Source: Eledone cirrhosa (taxonomy: Eukaryota). From it: 64,000 nt of DNA. How positions within the stretch are numbered: the stretch's first letter is position 1; every line of letters starts with the position of its first letter. The notes beneath the pieces are model-generated. The model had not been told where the DNA came from. It made no database searches and worked only from the letters and a program-made list of their open reading frames with translations. Location: the NCBI GenBank assembly GCA_964016885.1, contig OZ024747.1, forward strand, positions 82,646,001 to 82,710,000. Direction: 5' to 3'. Made by a program: the position numbers and the translations under genes. Below, piece by piece: positions 5,068-64,000 of this stretch.

Positions 5068-6162
5068 CTATAATTTCATGCAAGAGGATGAAACAGTCGT
5101 CCAGATATCTCTTCCAGTTTTTCTATGTGTAAGTAGAACTTTGCGGTAGAGAGTGGTTTCCAAATATCCCATGACAAGGTTGGCGTATGAGGGGGCTACT
5201 TTCGTGCCCATGGCAGTCCCAGATTTCTGTCTGTAGTATTTGGCATCGAATTCGAAGAAGTTATTTTCCAAGATGAATTTGAGTCCCTCCAACACAAATT
5301 CTTTAGGGATGCGCTGTGGAAGTTCACTAGGGAAATGTTCCAGCCAGAATTGTATTGCCTCTATGCTTAGGTTGTGTGGGATATTGGAATATAGATTGAT
5401 GACATCAAAGGTTACTAGTAGGGTATGTTCATTATTAAGTGTTGTTGGGAGGTGGTTGAGCATGTCAAGGTCGTCCCTTATGAAGCTTTTTATGTGTTTT
5501 AGGAAAGGTTTAAGCAGAATATCTAGGACGTTGCTTAGGCGGTGGGTTTCACATGTGGTACCTGCTATTATGGGTCTTAATTTAAGGTCATCAGGAGGGG
5601 GTATATTGATGTAAATGTCTGTAGCTTGCTTGCAGGCCCTGCCTATTACTTCGCTTTTGTGTGTCTTAGGGATACCGTAGAAGAGGCTGGTTCTGCTTTT
5701 GGTGATGTAGTTGTATTCCTTGTTGGTAAGGACTTCTTTGTAAAGGGTTGTTAGGGATTTTAGGTTTCTCATTATTTTCTGTTGTGTGTAGTGTTGGGCC
5801 TTTTCGTAATATGTTTGGTTTTCTAGAGTTGAGAGTACTAGAGTTGTGTAATAATCTGTCTCCATAAGGATTACTGCACTCCCTTTATCCGCCTCTTTGA
5901 TTGTTAGGGTTTTGTCGTTCTTTAGACTGTTAAGACCATTCCATTCTTTTTTGCTTAGGTTTGGTTTTTGTTTATGTCTGTGTAGGTGGTGGTATGGGTA
6001 ATTAGTAATGTGTTCGCAGAATTGATCGTGGAATTTGTTCTTGTCTTTTGGTGGGGTGTAGTTGCTTCTATTTCTGGCTATTGAGTCATCCTCATTGTAT
6101 TTGTCGTATAGTTGCTCGCTGAGTCTTAGTTTTCTACAGAATTCTGCAATATCTTCCTTCAT
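5068..6162 (-). pseudogene. PLE reverse transcriptase, frameshifted near the YxDD motif and continuing in ORF 4751-5083
   Basis: 364-aa ORF with PLE/TERT-like RT motifs; the RYLDD motif is read in a different frame near 5090-5110. Confidence 0.88.
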
Positions 6163-6369
6163 TTCGGGGTAGTTTGGTCGTTGGGGAGTTGGTGTAAATT
6201 TCAGACCTTTGGAGAGTATGTTGATTTTGTCTGTTGTTAATTCTTTAGAGGTTAAATTAACGATTTTTATTACATTTTGTGTCTCCTGTGTGTTTTGTGT
6301 TATCTTGTTACCCTGTGTCTGTGTGTTGTGTCTAAAAAATGACTACGGAAGTTGTGCTCCTTCTCCACA

Positions 6370-13303: not shown

Positions 13304-13341
<38 letters not shown>

Positions 13342-13535
13342 TCAGGTTTGAGGTTCACCACTGTATAGAGCTGGTCTATTCCGTATGGTCAATCGTAATG
13401 CAATAATATAGAGAGTACTCAACGTAAAGCAGTTCAACCGTCTTTGTTTTTGTAGTTGGTGGTGCTATTACGGAGTTAAATATTATAATGAAATGACAGG
13501 AGGCTGGATTTGTGTAAATCCTTGAAAGGTTTATT

Positions 13536-13593
13536 ATACTATGATCATTTCAATGACCGGGTTCCGTATGAATCCGGTGATATCATCAGGTAT
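13536..13593 (-). ncRNA. Type-I hammerhead ribozyme in the left arm of the palindrome (mirror copy)
   Basis: Exact reverse complement of 13773-13830. Confidence 0.8.
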
Positions 13594-13772
13594 TCGAAAT
13601 ATAATACGTGAATGTAATAGGTAAAATCCATGGGGCTGAAAATCGAGACCCGAGGGCGACCGCTATTCTGTTCCTTCAACCTGAGGTTGAAGGAACAGAA
13701 TAGCGGTCGCCCTCGGGTCTCGATTTTCAGCCCCATGGATTTTACCTATTACATTCACGTATTATATTTCGA

Positions 13773-13830
13773 ATACCTGATGATATCACCGGATTCATAC
13801 GGAACCCGGTCATTGAAATGATCATAGTAT
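13773..13830 (+). ncRNA. Type-I hammerhead ribozyme in the right arm of the palindrome
   Basis: atac-CTGATGA-tatcaccggattc atacg gaacccggtcatt-GAAA-tgatca-TA-gtat; predicted cleavage after 13826 (AUA). Confidence 0.8.
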
Positions 13831-13881
13831 AATAAACCTTTCAAGGATTTACACAAATCCAGCCTCCTGTCATTTCATTAT

Positions 13882-13913
<32 letters not shown>

Positions 13914-14178: not shown

Positions 14179-14179
14179 A

Positions 14180-14505
14180 GATGAAATCGAAAATGCAACT
14201 GGAGTCTTATTTTTTTTTAAATATATATATTTATTTGGTTCCTTTACCGGTTTCGCAGTTCTTCTGCTTTACAAAAGTAGAGAAAAACCACAGCATATAT
14301 ATATGTGAGAAAAACCACAGACCCTCCATCTCAACTCTACTTTTGAAAAGCAGAAGAACTGCGAAACAGGTAAAGGAACCAAATAAATATATATATTTTT
14401 TTTTTAATATGACTCCAGTTGCATTTTCGATTTCATCTTTTTTTCTCTATATTTTCACTCGTGTTGGACATGTCGGTTATTTTTCATTTTGTAAAAAAAC
14501 CTCAC

Positions 14506-17632: not shown

Positions 17633-17706
<74 letters not shown>

Positions 17707-17738
17707 AGATCAAAAGATGGTTAAAGGAGTTCCATATA

Positions 17739-17805
17739 TTTTATTATGCGCATTTCAAAAACAAACATCATCAAACAATAATATTTGTGTTTTCATCAGA
17801 TAAAA
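17739..17805 (-). ncRNA. Type-I hammerhead ribozyme in a PLE terminal repeat
   Basis: Reverse complement of 19573-19639. Confidence 0.8.
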
Positions 17806-19572
17806 CAGGAGAACATGATATGAAGGCTAAAAAACACTTGTTGATAGTGCAGTTTTAAATCAACATATGAAAAGTGGTTTTAGATTGATGTGTGATATTG
17901 GGAAAAATATTTTATTTAGAGAGGGGGGGGGAGAAAAGGATGAAAAGGGAAGGAGATGAGAGGGAGAGATGGGTGATAGAGAGAAAGAGATAGTTTTTAT
18001 AACTGAGAGGAGATATATTTTATATAGAGGGGTTGAAAACCGTTGGAAGATACTGTATAAATTAAAAATTTTGAAAATTAATGAAGGGAGGATATGTGCG
18101 AGGAAAAAATATTTTATTTAGGGAGGGGTTGGAAAGGATGAAAAAAAGGGGGAGGAGATGAGAGTGAAGGTGGAAAGGGAGAGATGGGTGATAGAGAGAA
18201 AGAGATAGTTTTTATAACTGAGAAAAAGATATAATGTTTTAATATAGAGAGGTTGGGAACCGTTGGAAGATAATGTATAAATTAAAGGAATTTGAAAATT
18301 AACGAAGGGAAATTATGTATGAAGATAGAGAGAAAAAAAAAAATAATAATTGTGGGTGAATATTCTAACGTCAAAAGAAGAAATGTATGTATTGTGGGAA
18401 TTTCAAAATTAGCAAAGAGAAAAAAAGTTTATGTGTAGAAGGATTTGAGAAAAATAATGTGAAGTTAAAGTTTGTATATTGAATTCATATGTATTAATAA
18501 TGAGTTCGTTGATGGGGAGAAAAGAATAATATATTAAGATTAAAAAGATTTATGATAGAGAGAAAAAATAATAATGATTGCGGATGAATACTCAAAATGT
18601 CAAAAACAAATGTTATTGTTTTACGAGAAGATAGAATGAGGGTAATGAGTAAACGAGTATTATAGAGTGTATAATGCCCTTTAAAGTAAGGTAGATGGGT
18701 ATATTTTAAAGAATATATGAGTATATATTAAAAAAAATATAATAATAAATTAAGGATGAAATTGAGATTAAAAAGATTTATGATAGAGAGAAAAAATAAT
18801 AATGATTGCGGATGAATATTCAAAATGTCAAAAACAAATGTTATTGTTTTACGAGAAGATAGAATGAGGGTAATGAGTAAACGAGTATTATAGAGTGTAT
18901 AATGCCCTTTAAAGTAAGGTAGATGGGTATATTTTAAAGAGGTGTATGTATATGTGCCTTTGAGAAAAGATTCTAAATTGATAAAGAATTGAATATTAAC
19001 TGTATACTTTGTGAAAAGTTCTATGGAATTTATGCAGGCAGATAGAAAACAAATCTGAGCGTCTATTTATTATGGATTCTAGGTTAGAGATAATGGTAAA
19101 TTTTTCATTTAGGCAGAGATTACAGATTTTAGATAGAGAGCTGTTCAAGTATGAGGATGCAGAAGAAATCTTTTTCCAAAAGATGTTATATTTAATGTTT
19201 TTGTCTTTTAAGGACCATATGAGTTCTGAGAGAGCAGTGTTAGTTCAACCCCTCCCTAAATAAAATATTTTTTCCTCGCACATATCCTCCCTTCATTAAT
19301 TTTCAAAATTTTTAATTTATACAGTATCTTCCAACGGTTTTCAACCCCTCTATATAAAATATATCTCCTCTCAGTTATAAAAACTATCTCTTTCTCTCTA
19401 TCACCCATCTCTCCCTCTCATCTCCTTCCCTTTTCATCCTTTTCTCCCCCCCCCCTCTCTAAATAAAATATTTTTCCCAATATCACACATCAATCTAAAA
19501 CCACTTTTCATATGTTGATTTAAAACTGCACTATCAACAAGTGTTTTTTAGCCTTCATATCATGTTCTCCTG

Positions 19573-19639
19573 TTTTATCTGATGAAAACACAAATATTAT
19601 TGTTTGATGATGTTTGTTTTTGAAATGCGCATAATAAAA
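19573..19639 (+). ncRNA. Type-I hammerhead ribozyme in the inverted PLE terminal repeat
   Basis: ttttat-CTGATGA-aaacacaaatattat..atgatgtttgttttt-GAAA-tgcgca-TA-ataaaa; palindromic minimal stem III. Confidence 0.8.
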
Positions 19640-19762
19640 TATATGGAACTCCTTTAACCATCTTTTGATCTTATATTATGCATACTCCAGTCCCACAAAC
19701 TGTAGAGTGCTTCTTATCCGATATCTGCATTGCTTTATTGTACTACAATAAAACTCACCTCC

Positions 19763-28359: not shown

Positions 28360-31300
28360 ACAGCGTGGTGATAATGCCACACAAGGGCCAAGTGGAATGG
28401 CGGATCCACAGATGGCTATGTAACCATACATTCGCCAATCCTCGATAAGAGTGTTTAAATATCGAACATAAACAGTTCGAATAACGGTGAAATGGAGACT
28501 AGAACGTCATGTGACAGACTCTCACCCAACAGGTGCTCCCTGGCTCAGCAGCAGGAACCTGACTGTCAACCAAATACTGCTGATGTTGGAGGAAGGAGAA
28601 GAAGGAAAGGGGCCAGAACCAACTGGACGAAAGAATTGAATAGAACTGTTATGCAATGTTACCTGAAAAGTAACCCCAAGGAGAGGGGCTACAGGAGACG
28701 GATGCATAACATCTGGAACGAGATTGGTTTATTTAAATTAGATGAACAAAAATTGGCCGGGCAGGCTCGGGTAATAAGAACTAATGGGTGGATAAGCGAG
28801 CTGGAACTGGAGGAACTGAGCAGAGAGAATGGCTTGGAGATGGCGGGTGTAGTATGCCAGACAAGCGAGCCAGTGGGAAATGAAGGTGAAGAGGTCCTGA
28901 GAACGGAGGAACCACCCGAAGCAGACAATGATCTGAATACTGAGATAAATAATACCTGGAACAGAGATACGGCCACTGAGGAGATGAATGCTGACGGGCT
29001 AGGACAAGATTCGGTTGACATCCTAAATTTAGTGGTAGATGAATTGAACAATGATAGTGGGAGACCTATGAACCTAAGATTTGTAGACAGGAAAAAGTTA
29101 AAAGAAACAACAGCTAAGGTAAACAAAGTCATCCCATACCTTGAGGCGAGGAGCCTTCACCAGTGCAACAATATCCTCAAAGCAACAGCAAATACGGTGA
29201 GGAAACTACTTGGTATAAAAGCGAGAGGAAACAACAGACAAGAAAGAGCAGAGCCGTGGTGGAAGACGCGACTGAGTGGGCAAATCGGGGAAATGAGAAA
29301 TGACATAGGAAAGCTTGAGTCACTACTGAATGGGACACTAAAAAACATAGGCACTAAAAATAGACTGGAAATAAAATACAAAACTAGGAGGAAAAAGCTA
29401 AATATTATCATAGAGGAACTGAAGCAACGCATTGTAGCAAAGAGTGCAAAAATCAGGCGATACGAGAACAGAGTCAGTCAGTATAAACAGAACCGCATGT
29501 TCGACAACAACCAGAAGATGCTGTTTGGACAGCTTGAGGGGAAAGAAAGAGGCAACGACTTGATCCCTGGGGCGGGGCAAACTAAAACATTCTGGAGAGG
29601 AATATGGGAGCAGGATGTTAGACATAATGTCCAGGCAGGGTGGATTGAGACAGTACAGAGGGAGATCGGTGAGCAGGCACAACAACAAACTGATTTGAGT
29701 ATCACAGTTGAAACTCTTAAGGGGCAGGCCAAAAAACTAACCAACTGGAAATCACTAGGCCCAGATGGTGTGCAGGGGTATTGGATTAAACATTTAACAT
29801 CCCTCCACCCGAAGCTGACGGCCATGTTCAATGACTGCTTGGTGTCGGGTGAGGTGCCAGAGTGGTTGACAAAAGGTACCACAGTTCTGATAATGAAAGA
29901 CCGAATCAAGGGTAATGATGTTACCAACTATAGACCTATCACATGTCTGTCCGTAATGTGGAAACTGTTGACGAGCATTGTGTCTGAGGAAATCTACCAT
30001 CACCTCCACACAAACAACTTGTTACCGGACGAACAGAAAGGATGCCGAAAGAAGTCACGTGGTACAAAGGACCAGTTACTTATTGATAAGATGGTAATGG
30101 GGAATTGCAGGAGGAGACACACTGATCTTGCCATGGGATGGATAGACTACAGAAAGGCATTTGACATGGTGCCTCATTCTTGGATCACCAAAAGCCTGGA
30201 GATCTTCAGGGTGGCAGATAACATCAGACAGTTGCTAGGCAGGAGTATGGGGTCCTGGGAGACAGAGTTGACATCAACTGGAGTATCCTTGGGAAGCGTG
30301 AAGATCAAGAGAGGTATCTTCCAGGGAGATGGCCTGTCCCCTCTGTTGTTTGTCCTTGCCCTGATGCCCTTGACCATTATGCTGCGAAAAGTGAGAGCAG
30401 GATACAAGTTGGGAAGGGGAGAGCTTACCATCAATCACCTCCTCTTCATGGACGATCTTAAGCTCTTCGGGAAAAGTGAGAAGGAGTTGGATGTGCTTGT
30501 TGACACTGTCCGTATTTTCGGCAGTGATATATGTATGCAGTTTGGTATTGGTAAATGTGGAGTCATTGTGATGAGGAGGGGTAGGTTGAGCAGAAGTAAC
30601 GGGATCCAGATACCAACAGGTGAGATGATAAAGGAAATTGACTCTGAGGAAGGATACAAGTATTTGGGCGTTCTGGAGGCTGATGGCATAAAGAACAAAA
30701 AAATGAAGGAATTGTTAAGAACTGAATACATTCGGAGAGTAAGGAGCGTATTGAAGTCACATCTGAACAGCAGAAATGCCATAAGCGCAGTAAATTCCCG
30801 AGCTGTGTCTATTATTAGGTACAGTGCGGGAATTCTGAGATGGAATGTTGCTGAACAAAAAGAAATGGATAGGAAGACTAGGAAGCTATTGACTATCTAC
30901 AACATGTTCCACAAGAGGAGTGATGTCGATAGACTCTACCTAAGGAGATCTGAGGGTGGAAGAGGTCTTATCAGCATAGAGGACTGTGTTCAGATGGAGA
31001 AAAACAACCTATACAAATACGTGACCTATAGTAAGGAGCCAATGCTCAGAACTGTACTGAAGGAGGGGACAGTAGGCCAGGGGATGTCCAAGGAGGAAAT
31101 AACATCAAGGAGGAAGAGCAGCCTTAAGGGAAAATCCCTTCATAGTACCTTCTTTGAGAAAACTGAATTTAGAGATCCACAGACATGGAACTGGTTGAGA
31201 AGAGGAGACCTCAAAAAGGCTACAGAAGGAATGCTAATGGCTGCGCAGGAGCAGGCCCTCAAAACGAAGTGGTTGAAGCACCATATTTACAAGGAGGAGG

Positions 31301-31970
31301 CTAGCCCACTGTGCAGGATCTGTGGAGAGAGAGAGGAGACTGTGGCTCACATTGTGTCTGAGTGTAAACACCTAGCCCAGACCCACTATAAGGGCTGGAG
31401 ACACGATGTGATGGGCAGGGTGATCCACTGGCACCTGTGCAAAGTAAACAATTTACCACATTCTGAGAAATGGTATGAGCATAGGCCAGAGGCGGTGATG
31501 GAGAACAATCAGGTGAAGGTGCTGTGGGATTTTAGGATACAGACGGACAAAAAAATGGAACACAATAGACCTGACCTGGTGGTTGTGGACAAAGAAAAAA
31601 GATCGTGTCTGATTGTGGATGTGGCCTGCCCGTTCGACACGAGAGTACAAGAGAAGGAGAGGGAGAAAATTAACCGATACCAGGACCTAAAGTGGGGGGT
31701 GAAAAGGATTTGGAACTGCCATGAAGTCAAAGTGATCCCGATTGTCATAGGCGCACTGGGGACTATCTCCAAAAGTTTCCAGGGATGGTTAAAGAAAATC
31801 GACCCCTTCACGCTTTTTGGAACGCTTCAAAAGGCATGCTTGCTTGGAACAGCAAGAACCCTCCGATACGTCCTGAATATCTGAGGCTGCAGGTAGTGGC
31901 TTGATATTCAATCCAACGGACTTTCCAGTTAACCAACATCAATGACTGAGATTCAAGGAATAATAAATAC

Positions 31971-32660: not shown

Positions 32661-34253
32661 CTAACAGTGCTGCGATCGAATGTGGCTTTTTAGCCCAGCC
32701 AATGATCTAAAATGTCTTGCACAGAGTCGGCAACCAAAACATTCACTGGGAATAGTCGGCTGTGGTTGGAGTTCGTGTACTTTTGCATGTCGTTTGAGCC
32801 CTCCTGCTGATTTACATTCTCTACCACATGTTTGGCAAGCATGATGAGTAGCATCTCCAACAGCAGCCTGGTAGTCAACCACTGGTCTTACTTTATGACT
32901 GCGAAAATGACTTTCGAGTCCAGCTTTGCTTAGGCAGAGTCTCGCACATACGCTGCATGTCAGCACCATAGGAGGACCCTCGCCGTCTGGAAGTGCAACA
33001 GCAATGCCCTTCCTCACATCCCGCTTTACTTTCTCGTATGCGATTCGAGATGCCTCAAAGGCAACTTTTCCCTCATATACAGTCTTTCTCCATTTATTAC
33101 GATCAGCAGCAATATTCTCCCATGTATCAGCAGAGATGTTAGCGTCTTTCAGAGAGGCTTTCAAGAAATCCTTATACCTCTTTTTTGGTTTATGTGGCGG
33201 TCGTTTTCCTTTAACCAACTCTCCATAAAAGAGTTGTTTTGGTATTCTAGAATCCTTCATCCTGGCAAAGTGACCACTCCAACGGAGTCGTTGCTTAAGT
33301 ACAAGAGCTTCTATACTGTCACACATAGAGCTTTCCAAAATCTCAACATCACTGATGTGGTCCCTCCAGTGAACGCCATGGATCCGTCTGAGACACATCT
33401 GATGGAAACACTCCAATTGCTTAAGGTGGTGTCGATATGTGACCCAGGTCTCGCAGGCATAAAGAAGACAAGAGAGCACACATGCCCTGTACACCTTTAC
33501 CTTTGTCCTCCTGCATATGTCTCGCCGACCCCAGAGTCGGCTTTCTAGCTTTCCGAAAGCATCACTTGCTTTCTTAATCCTAAGTGAGATTTCACTGTCA
33601 AGGTTGCTGTATCGATTGACAGTGCTTCCCAGGTATACAAACTGATCAACCACTCCAAGTCGTTTGCCATACACATAGATGTTTGGTTCAGTGTACTGCT
33701 TACCAGGGGCAAGTTGGTACATGACGACGGTTTTCTTGAGACTGACAGTCAGACCTAGGGCAGTGCAAGCGTCAGAAAATGCATTCAAAATGTGCTGCAT
33801 ATCACTCTCTGTGTGCGCTACAAGATCGCAATCATCTGCATACAAGAGGTCTCTTATGATTGATGTAAACACTTTTGTCTTCGCAGCAAAGCGCCTGATG
33901 TTAAATATGCTGCCTGAGGTTCGATATCGGATGTAAACACCATGCTCGCAATTCCTGAATGCAATACAGAAAACCATTGCAAAGTATATGGCAAACAGGG
34001 TCGGTGCTGGAATATCCCCCTGCTTCACTCCATTTTTTACTGAGATAGGCTCCGACATGTTACCCCCGACATTAACCCAAGCCTTCATGTCGTCATGGAA
34101 AGACCTAACTAAAGCAAGGAACTTATCAGGGTAACCAAGTTTCTGGAGAACCTTCCATAATGCATCTCTGTTAACAGTATCGAAAGCTTTTGTCAGATCG
34201 ACAAAAGCCTGATACAGATCCAAGCCTTGTTCCATGCACTTCTCCTGGAGCTG
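32661..34253 (-). mobile_element. 5'-truncated RTE-clade LINE; ORF2 with RT and three C-terminal C2H2 zinc fingers
   Basis: FVDLTKAFDTVNR, GVKQG, LLYADD, FVYLGS, LRWSGH, GKRPPHKPKKR; open for 524 aa; (TG)n tail. Confidence 0.92.
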
Positions 34254-34951
34254 TATGTATGAGGGAGCTGTATATATGAGGGAGATTATAGATAGGACAA
34301 CACACGCTGTCTTTTCGTCGGGTAAGTTTTTAATTAATTTTTGTATTCTGAAACATCAAAATACAACAATTTGTTGGTCACTGGACTCGGGAATATCACG
34401 ACAGAAGTTTGTGGAAGTTACACAAATATTTTAGTATATTTTAGCAGAGCAATCCTTATTTATATTTTACATTTTACATTTACTTACATCTCAATATAAC
34501 ATGGCTAAAATTCAAATTTTGCAAAGAGAAGAAAACGGTCAAATGAACTAGATACATCGCACTGTCCCCCCGCCACCACAATAACTTCTACACTCTCTCC
34601 CCACCATCACATGTCATTACCCTATCTAGACTAAAGTCATCGACCTGTTGTCAAACTCTCTACTCTCTGTTGAATGTGTATATATATATATATGTATGTA
34701 TATGTGTGTATATACATCACTCAGTCAAACGACCAGATTTCAACCCCAACATCTACAACAACAACACCGGCACTAATGTTTACAGCAACAACAGCTTCAG
34801 AATGAACTGAAATGAACATTTACAACAACAACAAGAACAGCGGCATCAAAAGATTTTTTTTTTTAAATTTTAAAACTAAAAAAAAAAAATACATACATAC
34901 ATACATACATACATACATACATACATACATACATACATACATACATACATA

Positions 34952-52592: not shown

Positions 52593-52957
52593 ATATTGTT
52601 ATACTTTGGGAGGGTCATGTTGCCAATAAGAAACACACGCACCAGTTGCTTTCACTTCAATTTATTATATATTTATAAATTTATTAGTTTATAAATTTAT
52701 AAATTTCTGGCGTAGGACAGAACAAAGGAGAGGCACAGAAACAAAGAAAGGAATCCCCAGTCACTGAAGAGGTCACAGAGTGTGTGACGAAAGAACTATG
52801 ACTATATATAAACAACTATCTGGTTGTGGAACCAACCAACCAGAAATTTATAAATTTATAAACTTATAAATTTATAAATATATAATAAATTGAAGTGAAA
52901 GCAACTGGTGCGTGTGTTTCTTATTGGCAACATGACCCTCCCAAAGTATAACAATAT
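52593..52957. mobile_element. 118-bp inverted repeat (52593-52710 / 52840-52957) enclosing an HHR; PLE-type inverted terminus
   Basis: Arms are reverse complementary with about 1 mismatch. Confidence 0.8.
52759..52803 (+). ncRNA. Type-I hammerhead ribozyme, near intact
   Basis: agtca-CTGAAGA-g gtcaca gagtg tgtgac-GAAA-gaac-TA-tgact. Confidence 0.75.
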
Positions 52958-55899: not shown

Positions 55900-56055
55900 G
55901 TTTAAATCTACCCCAGTGTGATACTGGTACTTTATTTATCGACCCCGTAAGGATGAAAGGCAAAGTTAACCTCGGCGAGATTTGAACTCAGAACGTAACG
56001 ATTGGGAACAAATGCCCTAAAACATTCTGTCTGACACTACTAGTCCATCACCCCC
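55900..56055 (-). mobile_element. SINE family A relative whose 5' head runs into the satellite
   Basis: Body and B box at 55905-55995 are contiguous with the first 44-bp unit. Confidence 0.8.
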
Positions 56056-59000
56056 ACTACTACTAACATTCTGTCTGACACTACTAGTCCATCACCACCA
56101 CTACTACTAACATTCTGTCTGACACTACTAGTCCATCACCCCCACTACTACTAACATTCTGTCTGACACTACTAGTCCTTCCCCCCCACTACTACTAACA
56201 TTCTGTCTGACACTACTAGTCCATCACCACCACTACTACTAACATTCTGTCTTACACTACTAGTCCATCACCCCCACTACTACTAACATTCTGTCTGACA
56301 CTACTAGTCCTTCACCCCCACTACTACTAACATTCTGTCTGACACTACTAGTCCTTCCCCCCCACTACTACTAACATTCTGTCTGACACTACTAGTCCTT
56401 CAACCCCACTACTACTAACATTCTGTCTGACACTACTAGTCCTTCACCCCCACTACTACTAACATTCTGTCTGACACTACTAGTCCTTCACCCCCACTAC
56501 TACTAACATTCTGTCTGACACTACTAGTCCATCACCCCCACTACTACTAACATTCTGTCTGACACTACTAGTCCTTCACCCCCACTACTACTAACATTCT
56601 GTCTGACACTACTAGTCCTTCACCCCCACTACTACTAACATTCTGTCTGACACTACTAGTCCTTCACCTCCACTACTACTAACATTCTGTCTGACACTAC
56701 TAGTCCTTCCCCCCCACTACTACTAACATTCTGTCTGACACTACTAGTCCTTCACCTCCACTACTACTAACATTCTGTCTGACACTACTAGTCCTTCACC
56801 CCCACTACTACTAACATTCTGTCTGACACTACTAGTCCTTCACCCCCACTACTACTAACATTCTGTCTGACACTACTAGTCCTTCACCCCCACTACTACT
56901 AACATTCTGTCTGACACTACTAGTCCTTCACCTCCACTACTACTAACATTCTGTCTGACACTACTAGTCCTTCCCCCCCACTACTACTAACATTCTGTCT
57001 GACACTACTAGTCCATCACCACCACTACTACTAACATTCTGTCTGACACTACTAGTCCATCACCCCCACTACTACTAACATTCTGTCTGACACTACTAGT
57101 CCTTCACCCCCACTACTACTAACATTCTGTCTGACACTACTAGTCCTTCCCCCCCACTACTACTAACATTCTGTCTGACACTACTAGTCCTTCCCCCCCA
57201 CTACTACTAACATTCTGTCTGACACTACTAGTCCATCACCACCACTACTACTAACATTCTGTCTGACACTACTAGTCCATCACCCCCACTACTACTAACA
57301 TTCTGTCTGACACTACTAGTCCATCACCACCACTACTACTAACATTCTGTCTGACACTACTAGTCCATCACCCCCACTACTACTAACATTCTGTCTGACA
57401 CTACTAGTCCTTCCCCCCCCACTACTACTAACATTCTGTCTGACACTACTAGTCCATCACCACCACTACTACTAACATTCTGTCTGACACTACTAGTCCA
57501 TCACCCCCACTACTACTAACATTCTGTCTGACACTACTAGTCCTTCACCCCCACTACTACTAACATTCTGTCTGACACTACTAGTCCTTCCCCCCCACTA
57601 CTACTAACATTCTGTCTGACACTACTAGTCCTTCACCCCCACTACTACTAACATTCTGTCTGACACTACTAGTCCTTCACCTCCACTACTACTAACATTC
57701 TGTCTGACACTACTAGTCCTTCCCCCCCACTACTACTAACATTCTGTCTGACACTACTAGTCCATCACCACCACTACTACTAACATTCTGTCTGACACTA
57801 CTAGTCCATCACCCCCACTACTACTAACATTCTGTCTGACACTACTAGTCCTTCACCCCCACTACTACTAACATTCTGTCTGACACTACTAGTCCTTCCC
57901 CCCCACTACTACTAACATTCTGTCTGACACTACTAGTCCTTCACCCCCACTACTACTAACATTCTGTCTGACACTACTAGTCCTTCACCCCCACTACTAC
58001 TAACATTCTGTCTGACACTACTAGTCCTTCACCCCCACTACTACTAACATTCTGTCTGACACTACTAGTCCATCACCCCCACTACTACTAACATTCTGTC
58101 TGACACTACTAGTCCTTCACCCCCACTACTACTAACATTCTGTCTGACACTACTAGTCCTTCACCCCCACTACTACTAACATTCTGTCTGACACTACTAG
58201 TCCTTCACCTCCACTACTACTAACATTCTGTCTGACACTACTAGTCCTTCCCCCCCACTACTACTAACATTCTGTCTGACACTACTAGTCCTTCACCTCC
58301 ACTACTACTAACATTCTGTCTGACACTACTAGTCCTTCACCCCCACTACTACTAACATTCTGTCTGACACTACTAGTCCTTCACCCCCACTACTACTAAC
58401 ATTCTGTCTGACACTACTAGTCCTTCACCCCCACTACTACTAACATTCTGTCTGACACTACTAGTCCTTCACCTCCACTACTACTAACATTCTGTCTGAC
58501 ACTACTAGTCCTTCCCCCCCACTACTACTAACATTCTGTCTGACACTACTAGTCCATCACCACCACTACTACTAACATTCTGTCTGACACTACTAGTCCA
58601 TCACCCCCACTACTACTAACATTCTGTCTGACACTACTAGTCCTTCACCCCCACTACTACTAACATTCTGTCTGACACTACTAGTCCTTCCCCCCCACTA
58701 CTACTAACATTCTGTCTGACACTACTAGTCCTTCCCCCCCACTACTACTAACATTCTGTCTGACACTACTAGTCCATCACCACCACTACTACTAACATTC
58801 TGTCTGACACTACTAGTCCATCACCCCCACTACTACTAACATTCTGTCTGACACTACTAGTCCATCACCACCACTACTACTAACATTCTGTCTGACACTA
58901 CTAGTCCATCACCCCCACTACTACTAACATTCTGTCTGACACTACTAGTCCTTCCCCCCCACTACTACTAACATTCTGTCTGACACTACTAGTCCATCAC

Positions 59001-62000
59001 CACCACTACTACTAACATTCTGTCTGACACTACTAGTCCATCACCCCCACTACTACTAACATTCTGTCTGACACTACTAGTCCTTCACCCCCACTACTAC
59101 TAACATTCTGTCTGACACTACTAGTCCTTCCCCCCCACTACTACTAACATTCTGTCTGACACTACTAGTCCTTCACCCCCACTACTACTAACATTCTGTC
59201 TGACACTACTAGTCCTTCACCCCCACTACTACTAACATTCTGTCTGACACTACTAGTCCTTCACCCCCACTACTACTAACATTCTGTCTGACACTACTAG
59301 TCCATCACCCCCACTACTACTAACATTCTGTCTGACACTACTAGTCCTTCACCCCCACTACTACTAACATTCTGTCTGACACTACTAGTCCTTCACCCCC
59401 ACTACTACTAACATTCTGTCTGACACTACTAGTCCTTCACCTCCACTACTACTAACATTCTGTCTGACACTACTAGTCCTTCACCTCCACTACTACTAAC
59501 ATTCTGTCTGACACTACTAGTCCTTCACCACCACTACTACTAACATTCTGTCTGACACTACTAGTCCTTCACCACCACTACTACTAACATTCTGTCTGAC
59601 ACTACTAGTCCTTCACCCCCACTACTACTAACATTCTGTCTGACACTACTAGTCCTTCACCTCCACTACTACTAACATTCTGTCTGACACTACTAGTCCT
59701 TCACCCCCACTACTACTAACATTCTGTCTGACACTACTAGTCCTTCACCCCCACTACTACTAACATTCTGTCTGACACTACTAGTCCATCACCCCCACTA
59801 CTACTAACATTCTGTCTGACACTACTAGTCCTTCACCTCCACTACTACTAACATTCTGTCTGACACTACTAGTCCTTCACCCCCACTACTACTAACATTC
59901 TGTCTGACACTACTAGTCCTTCACCCCCACTACTACTAACATTCTGTCCGACACTACTAGTCCTTCCCCCCCACTACTACTAACATTCTGTCTGACACTA
60001 CTAGTCCTTCACCCCCACTACTACTAACATTCTGTCTGACACTACTAGTCCTTCACCTCCACTACTACTAACATTCTGTCCGACACTACTAGTCCTTCAC
60101 CCCCACTACTACTAACATTCTGTCTGACACTACTAGTCCTTCACCTCCACTACTACTAACATTCTGTCCGACACTACTAGTCCTTCCCCCCCACTACTAC
60201 TAACATTCTGTCAGACACTACTAGTCCTTCACCCCCACTACTACTAACATTCTGTCTGACACTACTAGTCCTTCACCCCCACTACTACTAACATTCTGTC
60301 CGACACTACTAGTCCTTCACCCCCACTACTACTAACATTCTGTCTGACACTACTAGTCCTTCACCCCCACTACTACTAACATTCTGTCTGACACTACTAG
60401 TCCATCACCTCCACTACTACTAACATTCTGTCTGACACTACTAGTCCATCACCTCCACTACTACTAACATTCTGTCTGACACTACTAGTCGATCACCCCC
60501 ACTACTACTAACATTCTGTCTGACACTACTAGTCCTTCACCACCACTACTACTAACATTCTGTCCGACACTACTAGTCCTTCACCCCCACTACTACTAAC
60601 ATTCTGTCTGACACTACTAGTCCTTCACCTCCACTACTACTAACATTCTGTCTGACACTACTAGTCCTTCACCCCCACTACTACTAACATTCTGTCTGAC
60701 ACTACTAGTCCATCACCCCCACTACTACTAACATTCTGTCTGACACTACTAGTCCTTCACCTCCACTACTACTAACATTCTGTCTGACACTACTAGTCCT
60801 TCACCCCCACTACTACTAACATTCTGTCTGACACTACTAGTCCTTCACCCCCACTACTACTAACATTCTGTCTGACACTACTAGTCCTTCACCCCCACTA
60901 CTACTAACATTCTGTCTGACACTACTAGTCCTTCACCTCCACTACTACTAACATTCTGTCTGACACTACTAGTCCTTCACCCCCACTACTACTAACATTC
61001 TGTCTGACACTACTAGTCCTTCACCCCCACTACTACTAACATTCTGTCTGACACTACTAGTCCTTCACCCCCACTACTACTAACATTCTGTCTGACACTA
61101 CTAGTCCATCACCCCCACTACTACTAACATTCTGTCTGACACTACTAGTCCTTCACCTCCACTACTACTAACATTCTGTCTGACACTACTAGTCCTTCAC
61201 CACCACTACTACTAACATTCTGTCTGACACTACTAGTCCATCACCCCCACTACTACTAACATTCTGTCTGACACTACTAGTCCTTCACCCCCACTACTAC
61301 TAACATTCTGTCTGACACTACTAGTCCATCACCCCCACTACTACTAACATTCTGTCTGACACTACTAGTCCTTCACCCCCACTACTACTAACATTCTGTC
61401 TGACACTACTAGTCCATCACCCCCACTACTACTAACATTCTGTCTGACACTACTAGTCCTTCACCACCACTACTACTAACATTCTGTCTGACACTACTAG
61501 TCCTTCACCCCCACTACTACTAACATTCTGTCTGACACTACTAGTCCATCACCCCCACTACTACTAACATTCTGTCTGACACTACTAGTCCTTCACCTCC
61601 ACTACTACTAACATTCTGTCTGACACTACTAGTCCTTCACCCCCACTACTACTAACATTCTGTCTGACACTACTAGTCCATCACCCCCACTACTACTAAC
61701 ATTCTGTCTGACACTACTAGTCCTTCACCACCACTACTACTAACATTCTGTCTGACACTACTAGTCCTTCACCCCCACTACTACTAACATTCTGTCTGAC
61801 ACTACTAGTCCTTCACCTCCACTACTACTAACATTCTGTCTGACACTACTAGTCCATCACCACCACTACTACTAACATTCTGTCTGACACTACTAGTCCA
61901 TCACCCCCACTACTACTAACATTCTGTCTGACACTACTAGTCCTTCACCCCCACTACTACTAACATTCTGTCTGACACTACTAGTCCATACCTCCACTAC

Positions 62001-64000
62001 TACTAACATTCTGTCTGACACTACTAGTCCTTCACCCCCACTACTACTAACATTCTGTCTGACACTACTAGTCCATCACCACCACTACTACTAACATTCT
62101 GTCTGACACTACTAGTCCATACCTCCACTACTACTAACATTCTGTCTGACACTACTAGTCCTTCACCCCCACTACTACTAACATTCTGTCTGACACTACT
62201 AGTCCATCACCACCACTACTACTAACATTCTGTCCGACACTACTAGTCCTTCACCCCCACTACTACTAACATTCTGTCTGATACTACTAGTCCATCACCC
62301 CCACTACTACTAACATTCTGTCTGACACTACTAGTCCATCACCCCCACTACTACTAACATTCTGTCTGACACTACTAGTCCTTCCCCCCCACTACTACTA
62401 ACATTCTGTCTGACACTACTAGTCCTTCCCCCCACTACTACTAACATTCTGTCTGACACTACTAGTCCTTCACCCCCACTACTACTAACATTCTGTCTGA
62501 CACTACTAGTCCTTCACCACCACTACTACTAACATTCTGTCTGACACTACTAGTCCTTCACCCCCACTACTACTAACATTCTGTCTGACACTACTAGTCC
62601 TTCACCTCCACTACTACTAACATTCTGTCTGACACTACTAGTCCTTCACCCCCACTACTACTAACATTCTGTCTGACACTACTAGTCCTTCACCCCCACT
62701 ACTACTAACATTCTGTCTGACACTACTAGTCCTTCACCCCCACTACTACTAACATTCTGTCTGACACTACTAGTCCTTCACCACCACTACTACTAACATT
62801 CTGTCTGACACTACTAGTCCTTCACCCCCACTACTATTAACATTCTGTCTGACACTACTAGTCCATCACCCCCACTACTACTAACATTCTGTCTGACACT
62901 ACTAGTCCATCACCCCCACTACTACTAACATTCTGTCTGATACTACTAGTCCATCACCCCCACTACTACTAACATTCTGTCTGACACTACTAGTCCTTCC
63001 CCCCCACTACTACTAACATTCTGTCTGACACTACTAGTCCTTCACCCCCACTACTACTAACATCCTGTCTGACACTACTAGTCCATCACCCCCACTACTA
63101 CTAACATTCTGTCTGACACTACTAGTCCTTCACCCCCACTACTACTAACATCCTGTCTGACACTACTAGTCCATCACCCCCACTACTACTAACATTCTGT
63201 CTGACACTACTAGTCCTTCACCCCCACTACTACTAACATTCTGTCTGACACTACTAGTCCTTCACCTCCACTACTACTAACATTCTGTCTGACACTACTA
63301 GTCCATCACCCCCACTACTACTAACATTCTGTCTGACACTACTAGTCCTTCACCCCCACTACTACTAACATTCTGTCCGACACTACTAGTCCATCACCCC
63401 CACTACTACTAACATTCTGTCTGACACTACTAGTCCATCACCCCCACTACTACTAACATTCTGTCTGACACTACTAGTCCTTCACCCCCACTACTACTAA
63501 CATTCTGTCCGACACTACTAGTCCTTCACCCCCACTACTACTAACATTCTGTCTGACACTACTAGTCCTTCACCCCCACTACTACTAACATTCTGTCTGA
63601 CACTACTAGTCCTTCACCCCCACTACTACTAACATTCTGTCCGACACTACTAGTCCTTCACCCCCACTACTACTAACATTCTGTCTGACACTACTAGTCC
63701 TTCACCCCCACTACTACTAACATTCTGTCCGACACTACTAGTCCTTCACCCCCACTACTACTAACATTCTGTCTGACACTACTAGTCCTTCACCCCCACT
63801 ACTACTAACATTCTGTCCGACACTACTAGTCCTTCACCCCCACTACTACTAACATTCTGTCCGACACTACTAGTCCATCACCCCCACTACTACTAACATT
63901 CTGTCTGACACTACTAGTCCTTCACCTCCACTACTACTAACATTCTGTCTGACACTACTAGTCCATCACCTCCACTACTACTAACATTCTGTCTGACACT
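56021..64000. repeat. 44-bp tandem satellite, about 181 units, running off the window end
   Basis: AACATTCTGTCTGACACTACTAGTCC(A/T)TC(A/C)CC(C/A/T)CCACTACTACT; units start at 56021, 56065 and so on. Confidence 0.98.

Follow-up and report, generated by a model that had tools for sequence, protein, structure and literature searches.

The 397-bp perfect palindrome found in the window, i.e. the whole 64,000-nucleotide stretch of Eledone cirrhosa DNA analysed here, is not an element by itself, but the region in which two copies of the 3' end of a longer repeat, both 5'-truncated and arranged head to head, overlap. Very probably, the repeat is a young, non-coding 2.8-kb sequence with the architecture of Penelope-like elements (PLEs), and a single event likely placed both copies into (TA)n through a borrowed PLE reverse transcriptase (RT)/endonuclease, which likely primed twice, once per target strand, at two fixed RNA sites located 145 nt apart.

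The palindrome consists of two exact 198-bp arms (13485-13682 and 13684-13881), separated by a 1-nt unpaired centre at 13683, as originally predicted from the sequence. A search of the window for arms of at least 20 nt and loops of 0-11 nt returned it as the only perfect palindrome not composed of microsatellite DNA. The inserted DNA is larger, spanning positions ~13340-13881, and is bordered on both sides by (TA)n (Table 1). Positions 13335-13484, on the left, match positions 1-150 of the repeat unit at 99.3%, the final 5 nt being ambiguous with the TA tract. The same RNA had been expected from transcription of either side; since the left arm continues 145 nt beyond the right one, which lacks this part of the element, the two transcripts differ. 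The CCCGAGGGCG motif, previously regarded as central, lies some 30 nt away from the centre; it is complementary to the 3' strand of a conserved family hairpin. The centre base is template-faithful only on the strand of the short arm, the tail being on the opposite arm. Both arms are 100% identical to the youngest subfamily of the repeat, and the insertion is therefore recent. In four public contig sets, all from one study and possibly from the source sample, depth over the arms is high and no contig spans the centre.

Table 1. Features of the insertion, in window coordinates; S1 and S2 denote the first and second fixed ends of the element
Feature	Position	Strand	Evidence
Left (TA)n target microsatellite	13316..13339	.	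Read in sequence
145-nt tail downstream of the short end, equal to the first 145 nt of the 2797-bp unit, stopping at S2	13340..13484	-
Left arm: 5'-truncated copy of the element 3' end (pseudo-LTR), continuous with the tail	13485..13682	-	100% to unit 2600-2797
Mirror hammerhead motif	13536..13593	-	Read directly in sequence
Inversion junction, 2-nt microhomology (13681-13682) at the family CT-N-AG micro-palindrome	13681..13683	.	Arm alignments overlap by 2 nt
Right arm: 5'-truncated pseudo-LTR copy up to S1	13681..13881	+	100% to unit 2597-2797
3' strand of GC-rich hairpin conserved across subfamilies	13704..13713	+	13 pairs, 18 copies
Type-I hammerhead motif, predicted cut after 13826	13773..13830	+	Motif read in sequence
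Right (TA)n target microsatellite	13882..13908	.	Read in sequence

Repeat family and insertion architecture

A search of the 3.0-Gb genome, using one arm as query, gave 1281 candidates, and 40 out of the 40 scored (48 rows) were identical full-length matches. Whether copies are always palindromic had been left to this search, and they are not. In the 30 loci returned, arm copies either end straight in (TA)n or continue into a fixed 150-nt stretch, as does the left arm of the window. Two same-strand copies placed 2797 bp apart at one locus (L031) define the repeat unit, which contains internal duplications of ~510 bp and ~116 bp. No ORF in the unit exceeds 119 aa, and the five longest ones on the plus strand have no Pfam match; no match to a 784-aa RT/GIY-YIG protein was obtained by tblastn, and no recombinase or transposase ORF was found in the unit. 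As a RT/GIY-YIG ORF is missing, the family is considered non-autonomous.

Exact matches to a 28-nt end motif number 2,000 in the genome (1,012 and 988 on the two strands; none for the control), while a 23-nt hammerhead motif, present across subfamilies, has 4,101. Since most insertions carry two ends, the young subfamily is estimated to comprise in the order of a thousand insertions. The arms measure between some tens of bases and more than 2.8 kb, and the junction is different at every locus. Partial tandems, which create pseudo-LTRs (pLTRs), were found at loci L031, L032, L033, L045, L209, L213, L246 and L248. At L038 (4230-5599), both arms contain a 467-nt tandem deletion derivative, made up of terminal repeat and tail and of retrozyme-like size; splicing was discarded as its origin, the junction being a 1-nt microhomology and not a splice join. 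The left flank of L049 carries a 466-bp tandem repeat of another family, with its own hammerhead-like motif on the opposite strand, which is a candidate classical retrozyme array.

Insertion architecture was evaluated on a census of 60 loci, selected for an intact end motif and drawn from the first 100 listed end-motif matches along C1, six known clusters and the last match being left out. By combining alignment and motif calls, 41 loci were classified as two-ended, tail-out insertions, 2 as having an unresolved second end, 1 as having a direct tail fragment and 16 as single-ended or internal. In 40 of the 41 two-ended insertions one short end (S1) is paired with a tailed one (S2, around +145 to +150; one of these long ends, at L229, was called from alignment only). 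The single exception has two short ends, with a detached tail piece nearby, and no insertion is tailed at both ends; the binomial P of this rule, against a 50:50 expectation, is 4e-11. Over the 60 loci, (TA)4 is found within ~40 nt of 91 out of 95 outer ends, and any target-site duplication would be masked by insertion into (TA)n.

The 43 inversion junctions include 25 overlaps of 1-18 nt, one blunt join and 17 cases with 1-18 extra bases. The truncation points of the two arms are no more than 15 nt apart in 9 of the 43, against 2.9 in shuffles (P 0.001), a few rows of these statistics depending on imperfect segment calls. When the reach of the two arms was compared, with values taken by eye from the alignment tables, 9 out of 40 insertions were near-symmetric, 16 nested and 15 non-nested, 4 of the latter having no overlap between arms. 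The window insertion is the symmetric extreme of this series. Subfamily variants of the two arms of one insertion, scored in 33 pairs, are shared in 73 cases and discordant in 9 (shuffles 10%); divided by nesting, shared and discordant variants are 75 and 13 in nested pairs, 2 and 2 in non-nested ones. A single RNA templating both arms is plausible, and is weakly supported by a signal coming almost wholly from nested pairs.

PLE insertions are characterized, in the accessible text of PMC8557442 and PMC3846280, by partial tandems, by a 5'-truncated copy in inverted orientation, by a tail that is often restricted to one end and by a bias for (TA)n. The family shows the features used to recognize an EN+ PLE insertion: partial tandem, a 5'-truncated copy lying inverted at the 5' end, a single tailed end and a (TA)n target.

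Upstream of the short end, a GC-rich hairpin of 13 pairs is kept in all 18 aligned copies, with 3 pairs changed on both sides. It is preceded by a conserved CACT motif, resembling the initiator noted in rotifer pLTRs (PMC3846280, accessible text); at the window locus the 5' strand of the hairpin and the preceding initiator (Inr)-like motif are truncated away. In 114 arm alignments, truncations pile up between -220 and -199 (11 events, 0.94% per base), compared to 0.34% downstream (P 0.005) and 0.15% upstream (P 7e-5), the bin being picked after data inspection; the window arms, truncated at -200 and -197, fall near the pile-up. Such a distribution points to transcription starting near -216, or to termination induced by the hairpin. 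To generate the copies at L031, L032 and L254, which extend beyond -216 of an upstream unit, tandem transcripts of greater length, circles or template jumps are needed. In the tail, a possible pseudoknot made of two 6-bp stems is invariant across subfamilies and shows no covariation; two such stems within 150 nt are at chance level.

Hammerhead motif

One type-I hammerhead motif per strand had been described in the palindrome, and direct reading of the sequence agrees with it. In the plus-strand motif, the 4-bp stem I is formed by 13773-13776 and 13827-13830, with CUGAUGA at 13777-13783 and GAAA at 13815-13818, followed by UGAUCA and AUA; the stem II region is 31 nt long, with 10 pairs and 3 mismatches, including a U.U at its base, and stem III has 2 bp with a palindromic loop. 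The type-I core (CUGANGA, GAAA, NUH and helices I-III) is present. The G10.1-C11.1 closing pair of helix II is absent, and a U.U (or an A-U after an extra U) is found instead; the same U.U is found at this place in three or more unrelated hammerhead families of the genome. Overall, 98 distinct hammerhead-like sequences, from many families, were found in 1.4 Mb of fetched loci. Minimal hammerheads of PLE pLTRs (PMC4209133, accessible text) are alike in their short helix I (4-5 bp), long helix II and palindromic helix III, although they keep G10.1-C11.1; the same source reports opposite-strand hammerhead pairs, 100-700 bp apart, in Schistosoma PLEs.

The core is kept in the copies compared. In one pair of copies from different subfamilies, 57 of the 58 positions of the hammerhead region (98%) are identical, versus 57% upstream and 82% in the tail, i.e. 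a divergence of 43% and 18%, and the same pattern was observed in 14 cluster representatives. At the level of sequence comparison this suggests that the hammerhead region is under constraint; a recent module sweep is a possible alternative source of the invariance, which gives no covariation. Rfam hammerhead models matched neither the locus nor the unit, and also missed the minimal hammerhead of an autonomous family, used as a control.

The hammerhead fold of the monomer is not the predicted minimum-energy structure (z -1.6). The motif would be a passenger of the terminal repeat and, in order to cut, would need a second same-strand copy (dimer) or the help of a protein; the two hammerheads of the locus, being on opposite strands, provide no dimer in cis. 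Axolotl HHR_Amex2, which has the same 2-bp-plus-tetraloop helix III and the U.U at the base of helix II, self-cleaves weakly as a monomer and better as a dimer (PMC7229834, accessible text). Truncations do not pile up at the predicted cut site (in the -69 to -50 bin, 2 truncations out of 98 arms at risk); templates therefore appear uncleaved or re-ligated, and cleaved RNA was rejected as a template.

Origin of the inverted arms

In the proposed mechanism, a PLE enzyme, perhaps a dimer, would nick both strands of (TA)n; one target 3' end would prime at S1 (13881) and the other at S2 (13340). A few A/T letters close each of these two sites, and could allow brief pairing with the target. The two cDNAs would extend toward the 5' end of the RNA and, at this locus, both would have halted ~200 nt upstream of S1, near the putative transcription start, to be joined via the CT-N-AG micro-palindrome. 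Two primings, at S1 on one strand and at S2 on the other, are invoked because of the non-nested insertions and because the centre base is faithful only on the tail-less, short-arm strand. L1 twin priming also relies on microhomology to join two target-primed cDNAs head to head, with a variable second site and no overlap between arms; the two sites of the window family, in contrast, are fixed, and its arms overlap in most cases, generating palindromes. According to the accessible text of PMC11167929, PLE protein, once purified, cuts both target strands and extends both of them, starting at two internal RNA sites separated by a distance equal to the genomic tail; the protein is predicted to be a dimer, uncleaved RNA is used and hammerhead cleavage is not needed.

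An older model for inverted junctions, proposed for rotifer PLEs (PMC3846280, accessible text), is self-priming. In this case, a nascent strand (or an antisense RNA) of the same PLE-derived family would fold at the micro-palindrome and copy itself, which agrees with the location of the junction on the micro-palindrome, with the near-symmetric and nested insertions, and with the excess of shared variants in nested arms, as self-copying predicts. However, self-copying requires one arm to be contained in the other, and in the 15 non-nested insertions out of 40, including the 4 without overlap, each arm holds private sequence. A simple fold-back, put forward in the original prediction, thus cannot be the general cause. 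Moreover, at the window locus a single fold-back would need extra repair or mutation in order to leave the centre base faithful only on the strand lacking the 145-nt tail. Self-priming is therefore regarded as an improbable, though not negligible, origin of the arms.

In Cryptons and MITEs the unit is fixed, and is bounded either by fixed termini or by terminal inverted repeats. An undescribed palindromic mobile family, with a motif recalling Crypton-like elements, had been suggested. The perfect symmetry of this locus and the near-perfect palindromes at L043, L045 and L258 would fit a distinct Crypton-like or MITE-like DNA element having the 397-bp palindrome as its unit; such an element is very improbable, as arms and junctions vary from locus to locus, 16 of the 60 loci are single-ended or without a second end, the ends are asymmetric, partial tandems occur and a recombinase or transposase ORF is lacking. 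Equally hard to believe is a library or assembly fold-back artefact, which would account for the exact symmetry and for the lack of public contigs over the centre, itself uninformative; against it, the flanks are not mirrored, the tail is on one side only, different unique DNA lies beyond the TA tracts, and the same architecture, with other junctions, is found in 40 loci and in other families, including an insertion at window positions 17699-19679. Chance is not an issue, because both palindrome and hammerhead belong to a repeat family. Least credible of all is a function of the locus as an RNA switch or a hairpin-RNA gene that alternates between double-stranded RNA and self-cleavage. Read-through RNA would indeed contain a perfect 198-bp duplex, likely a Dicer/ADAR substrate, but the full hairpin has a predicted energy of ~-373 kcal/mol, versus -36 for one arm; with the antisense copy transcribed first from either side, predicted stem I pairing is 0.00 in read-through RNA, and ~0.09 for RNA starting at the centre. 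The proposed alternation between hairpin and ribozyme is thus unlikely, because every read-through transcript is predicted to sequester the hammerhead; in addition, the insertion is recent, and hundreds of loci would have the same property by accident of insertion. If transcribed, the locus would, on the basis of these models, likely yield double-stranded rather than cleaved RNA, and hundreds of palindromic loci would supply built-in double-stranded RNA against the family.

Starting from two primings as the preferred reading, a wider proposal can be tentatively advanced, which we hold to be possible rather than probable. PLEs would integrate by obligate twin priming, in which a dimeric enzyme starts two cDNAs from one RNA, each at its own fixed internal site and on its own target strand; this by itself would explain tail, inverted copy and palindromes. 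The family would be a protein-free cis-cassette (Inr-like start, conserved hairpin, hammerhead and start sites 145 nt apart), which hijacks a Neptune-like enzyme without sharing an end sequence with it, transports a non-coding cargo of 2.4 kb and gives off tandem derivatives of retrozyme size. No description of a strict one-of-each rule, or of twin priming for PLEs, was found in the main texts of the accessible literature, where the origin of PLE inverted copies and tails is still stated as open (PMC8557442; PMC11167929, accessible text). Two-priming and self-priming models are discriminated by the 40/41 rule and by the non-nested arms. A young family of about a thousand insertions with an unusually long tail makes ends easy to score and gives exact start sites; the palindrome itself would be an expected by-product of PLE insertion.

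Autonomous PLEs and known systems

Several young autonomous PLEs are present in the genome: a family with a 784-aa ORF, matching RT and GIY-YIG domains, a 1217-aa family, and a related, second family with open frames of 1226-1261 aa. The last two are labelled here as Neptune-like, on the basis of their CxxC linker. The 1217-aa family is arranged in 4129-bp tandem units and has its own minimal hammerhead. Its ORF has no Pfam match, and is assigned to PLEs by BLASTP similarity to the 784-aa RT/GIY-YIG protein (E 1e-8), weak RT matches among PDB sequences and motifs recognized by eye. In this family, all 17 resolvable inverted insertions, counted by eye, combine a short and a long end, with tails of 43-58 nt and (TA)n targets, one further pair being unresolved. 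As an autonomous family also obeys it, the one-short-one-long rule is a property of PLEs and is not special to the window family. One informative pair of this family, from L151/L152, has 2 shared and 0 discordant variants. A very young element is found at L157 (4754-8882; G000:C2:348854500 onward), composed of the 4129-bp tandem unit and coding for the 1217-aa ORF, with a long asparagine-rich insert; it has many identical copies and three fixed ends (short, +43 and +58), and would be a good enzyme source for in vitro work.

The window family is likely copied by the enzyme of a Penelope-like retrotransposon. Among the top candidates listed, an autonomous element with the same terminal repeat was found neither in 46 loci of two RT/GIY-YIG families, nor in 30 Neptune-like loci, 15 further PLE 3' ends or 40 other hammerhead-bearing loci. 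The 784-aa family, the broken PLE family of the window and the two Neptune-like families have no terminal repeat in common with the window family; a short motif likeness before S1 is lost in subfamily B, and was discounted. One out of 120 loci, L290 (340-5049, minus-strand reading), is a chimeric tail-out insertion in a single TA tract, in which the tailed arm is a Neptune-like element and the short arm contains 858 nt of the window family, joined without TA to the Neptune-like ORF. It could derive from a template switch, or from a later insertion with deletion; from the sequence of this one chimera, the Neptune-like family may perhaps be the driver of the window family. The arm with the 858 nt lacks a stretch of Neptune 3' end of about equal length, as though two enzymes had advanced in step.

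Of the relationships originally proposed, the one to PLEs and retrozymes stands, together with the likeness of the hammerhead to those of PLE terminal repeats; an undescribed palindromic family, a general fold-back and an RNA switch are not supported. EN+ PLEs of the Neptune and Penelope/Poseidon clades (PMC3846280, PMC8557442, PMC11167929, accessible text) resemble the window family in having partial tandems, a 5'-truncated copy in inverted orientation, one tailed end, (TA)n targets, a type-I hammerhead within the terminal repeat and two fixed 3' ends. The window family differs from them by the absence of a RT/GIY-YIG ORF, by its 2.8-kb non-coding body with the two internal duplications and by a 145-nt tail, compared to 30-40 nt in published PLEs. 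MRC1 of Chlamydomonas is likewise non-coding, with pLTRs and head-to-tail copies, and recently active; according to the same source, non-autonomous PLEs like MRC1 generally have the 3' end in common with an autonomous family, whereas no such partner was found here, and most Chlamys have no hammerhead, unlike the window family (PMC8557442, accessible text). Animal non-LTR retrozymes are also non-coding, carry a type-I hammerhead and are proposed to be mobilised by PLEs (PMC7229834; bioRxiv 10.64898/2026.07.22.740005, accessible text). They are described as tandem monomers of 150-450 bp, whereas the window family is a dispersed 2.8-kb unit, with one tandem derivative of comparable size at L038. 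An origin of retrozymes from PLE pLTRs has been proposed (bioRxiv 10.64898/2026.07.22.740005; PMC7761336, accessible text); the L038 derivative is in line with it, and the family may be intermediate between PLEs and retrozymes. No description of the repeat was found in the main texts of the accessible literature.

Other repeated elements are found in the window. The insertion at 17699-19679 belongs to another hammerhead-bearing family; it is inverted and tail-out, with 434-nt arms 99.8% identical and motifs at 17799 (minus strand) and 19579 (plus strand), and its right arm apparently has a ~90-nt tail. An inverted stub at 52593-52957, with 118-nt arms 99% identical and a minimal hammerhead at 52764, belongs to the Neptune-like family of the L290 chimera. 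An imperfect palindrome at 14179-14438, probably an inverted stub as well, derives from a very high-copy repeat, with a summed contig depth near 1e6. Coding sequences include the broken PLE RT ORF (5068-6342, minus strand), an intact-looking non-LTR RT ORF of 1141 aa (28459-31884, plus strand) and a 564-aa RT with C2H2 fingers (32661-34355, minus strand). The end of the window, 56021-64000, is occupied by a 44-bp satellite, with at least 181 copies, 97% alike and strongly strand-skewed.
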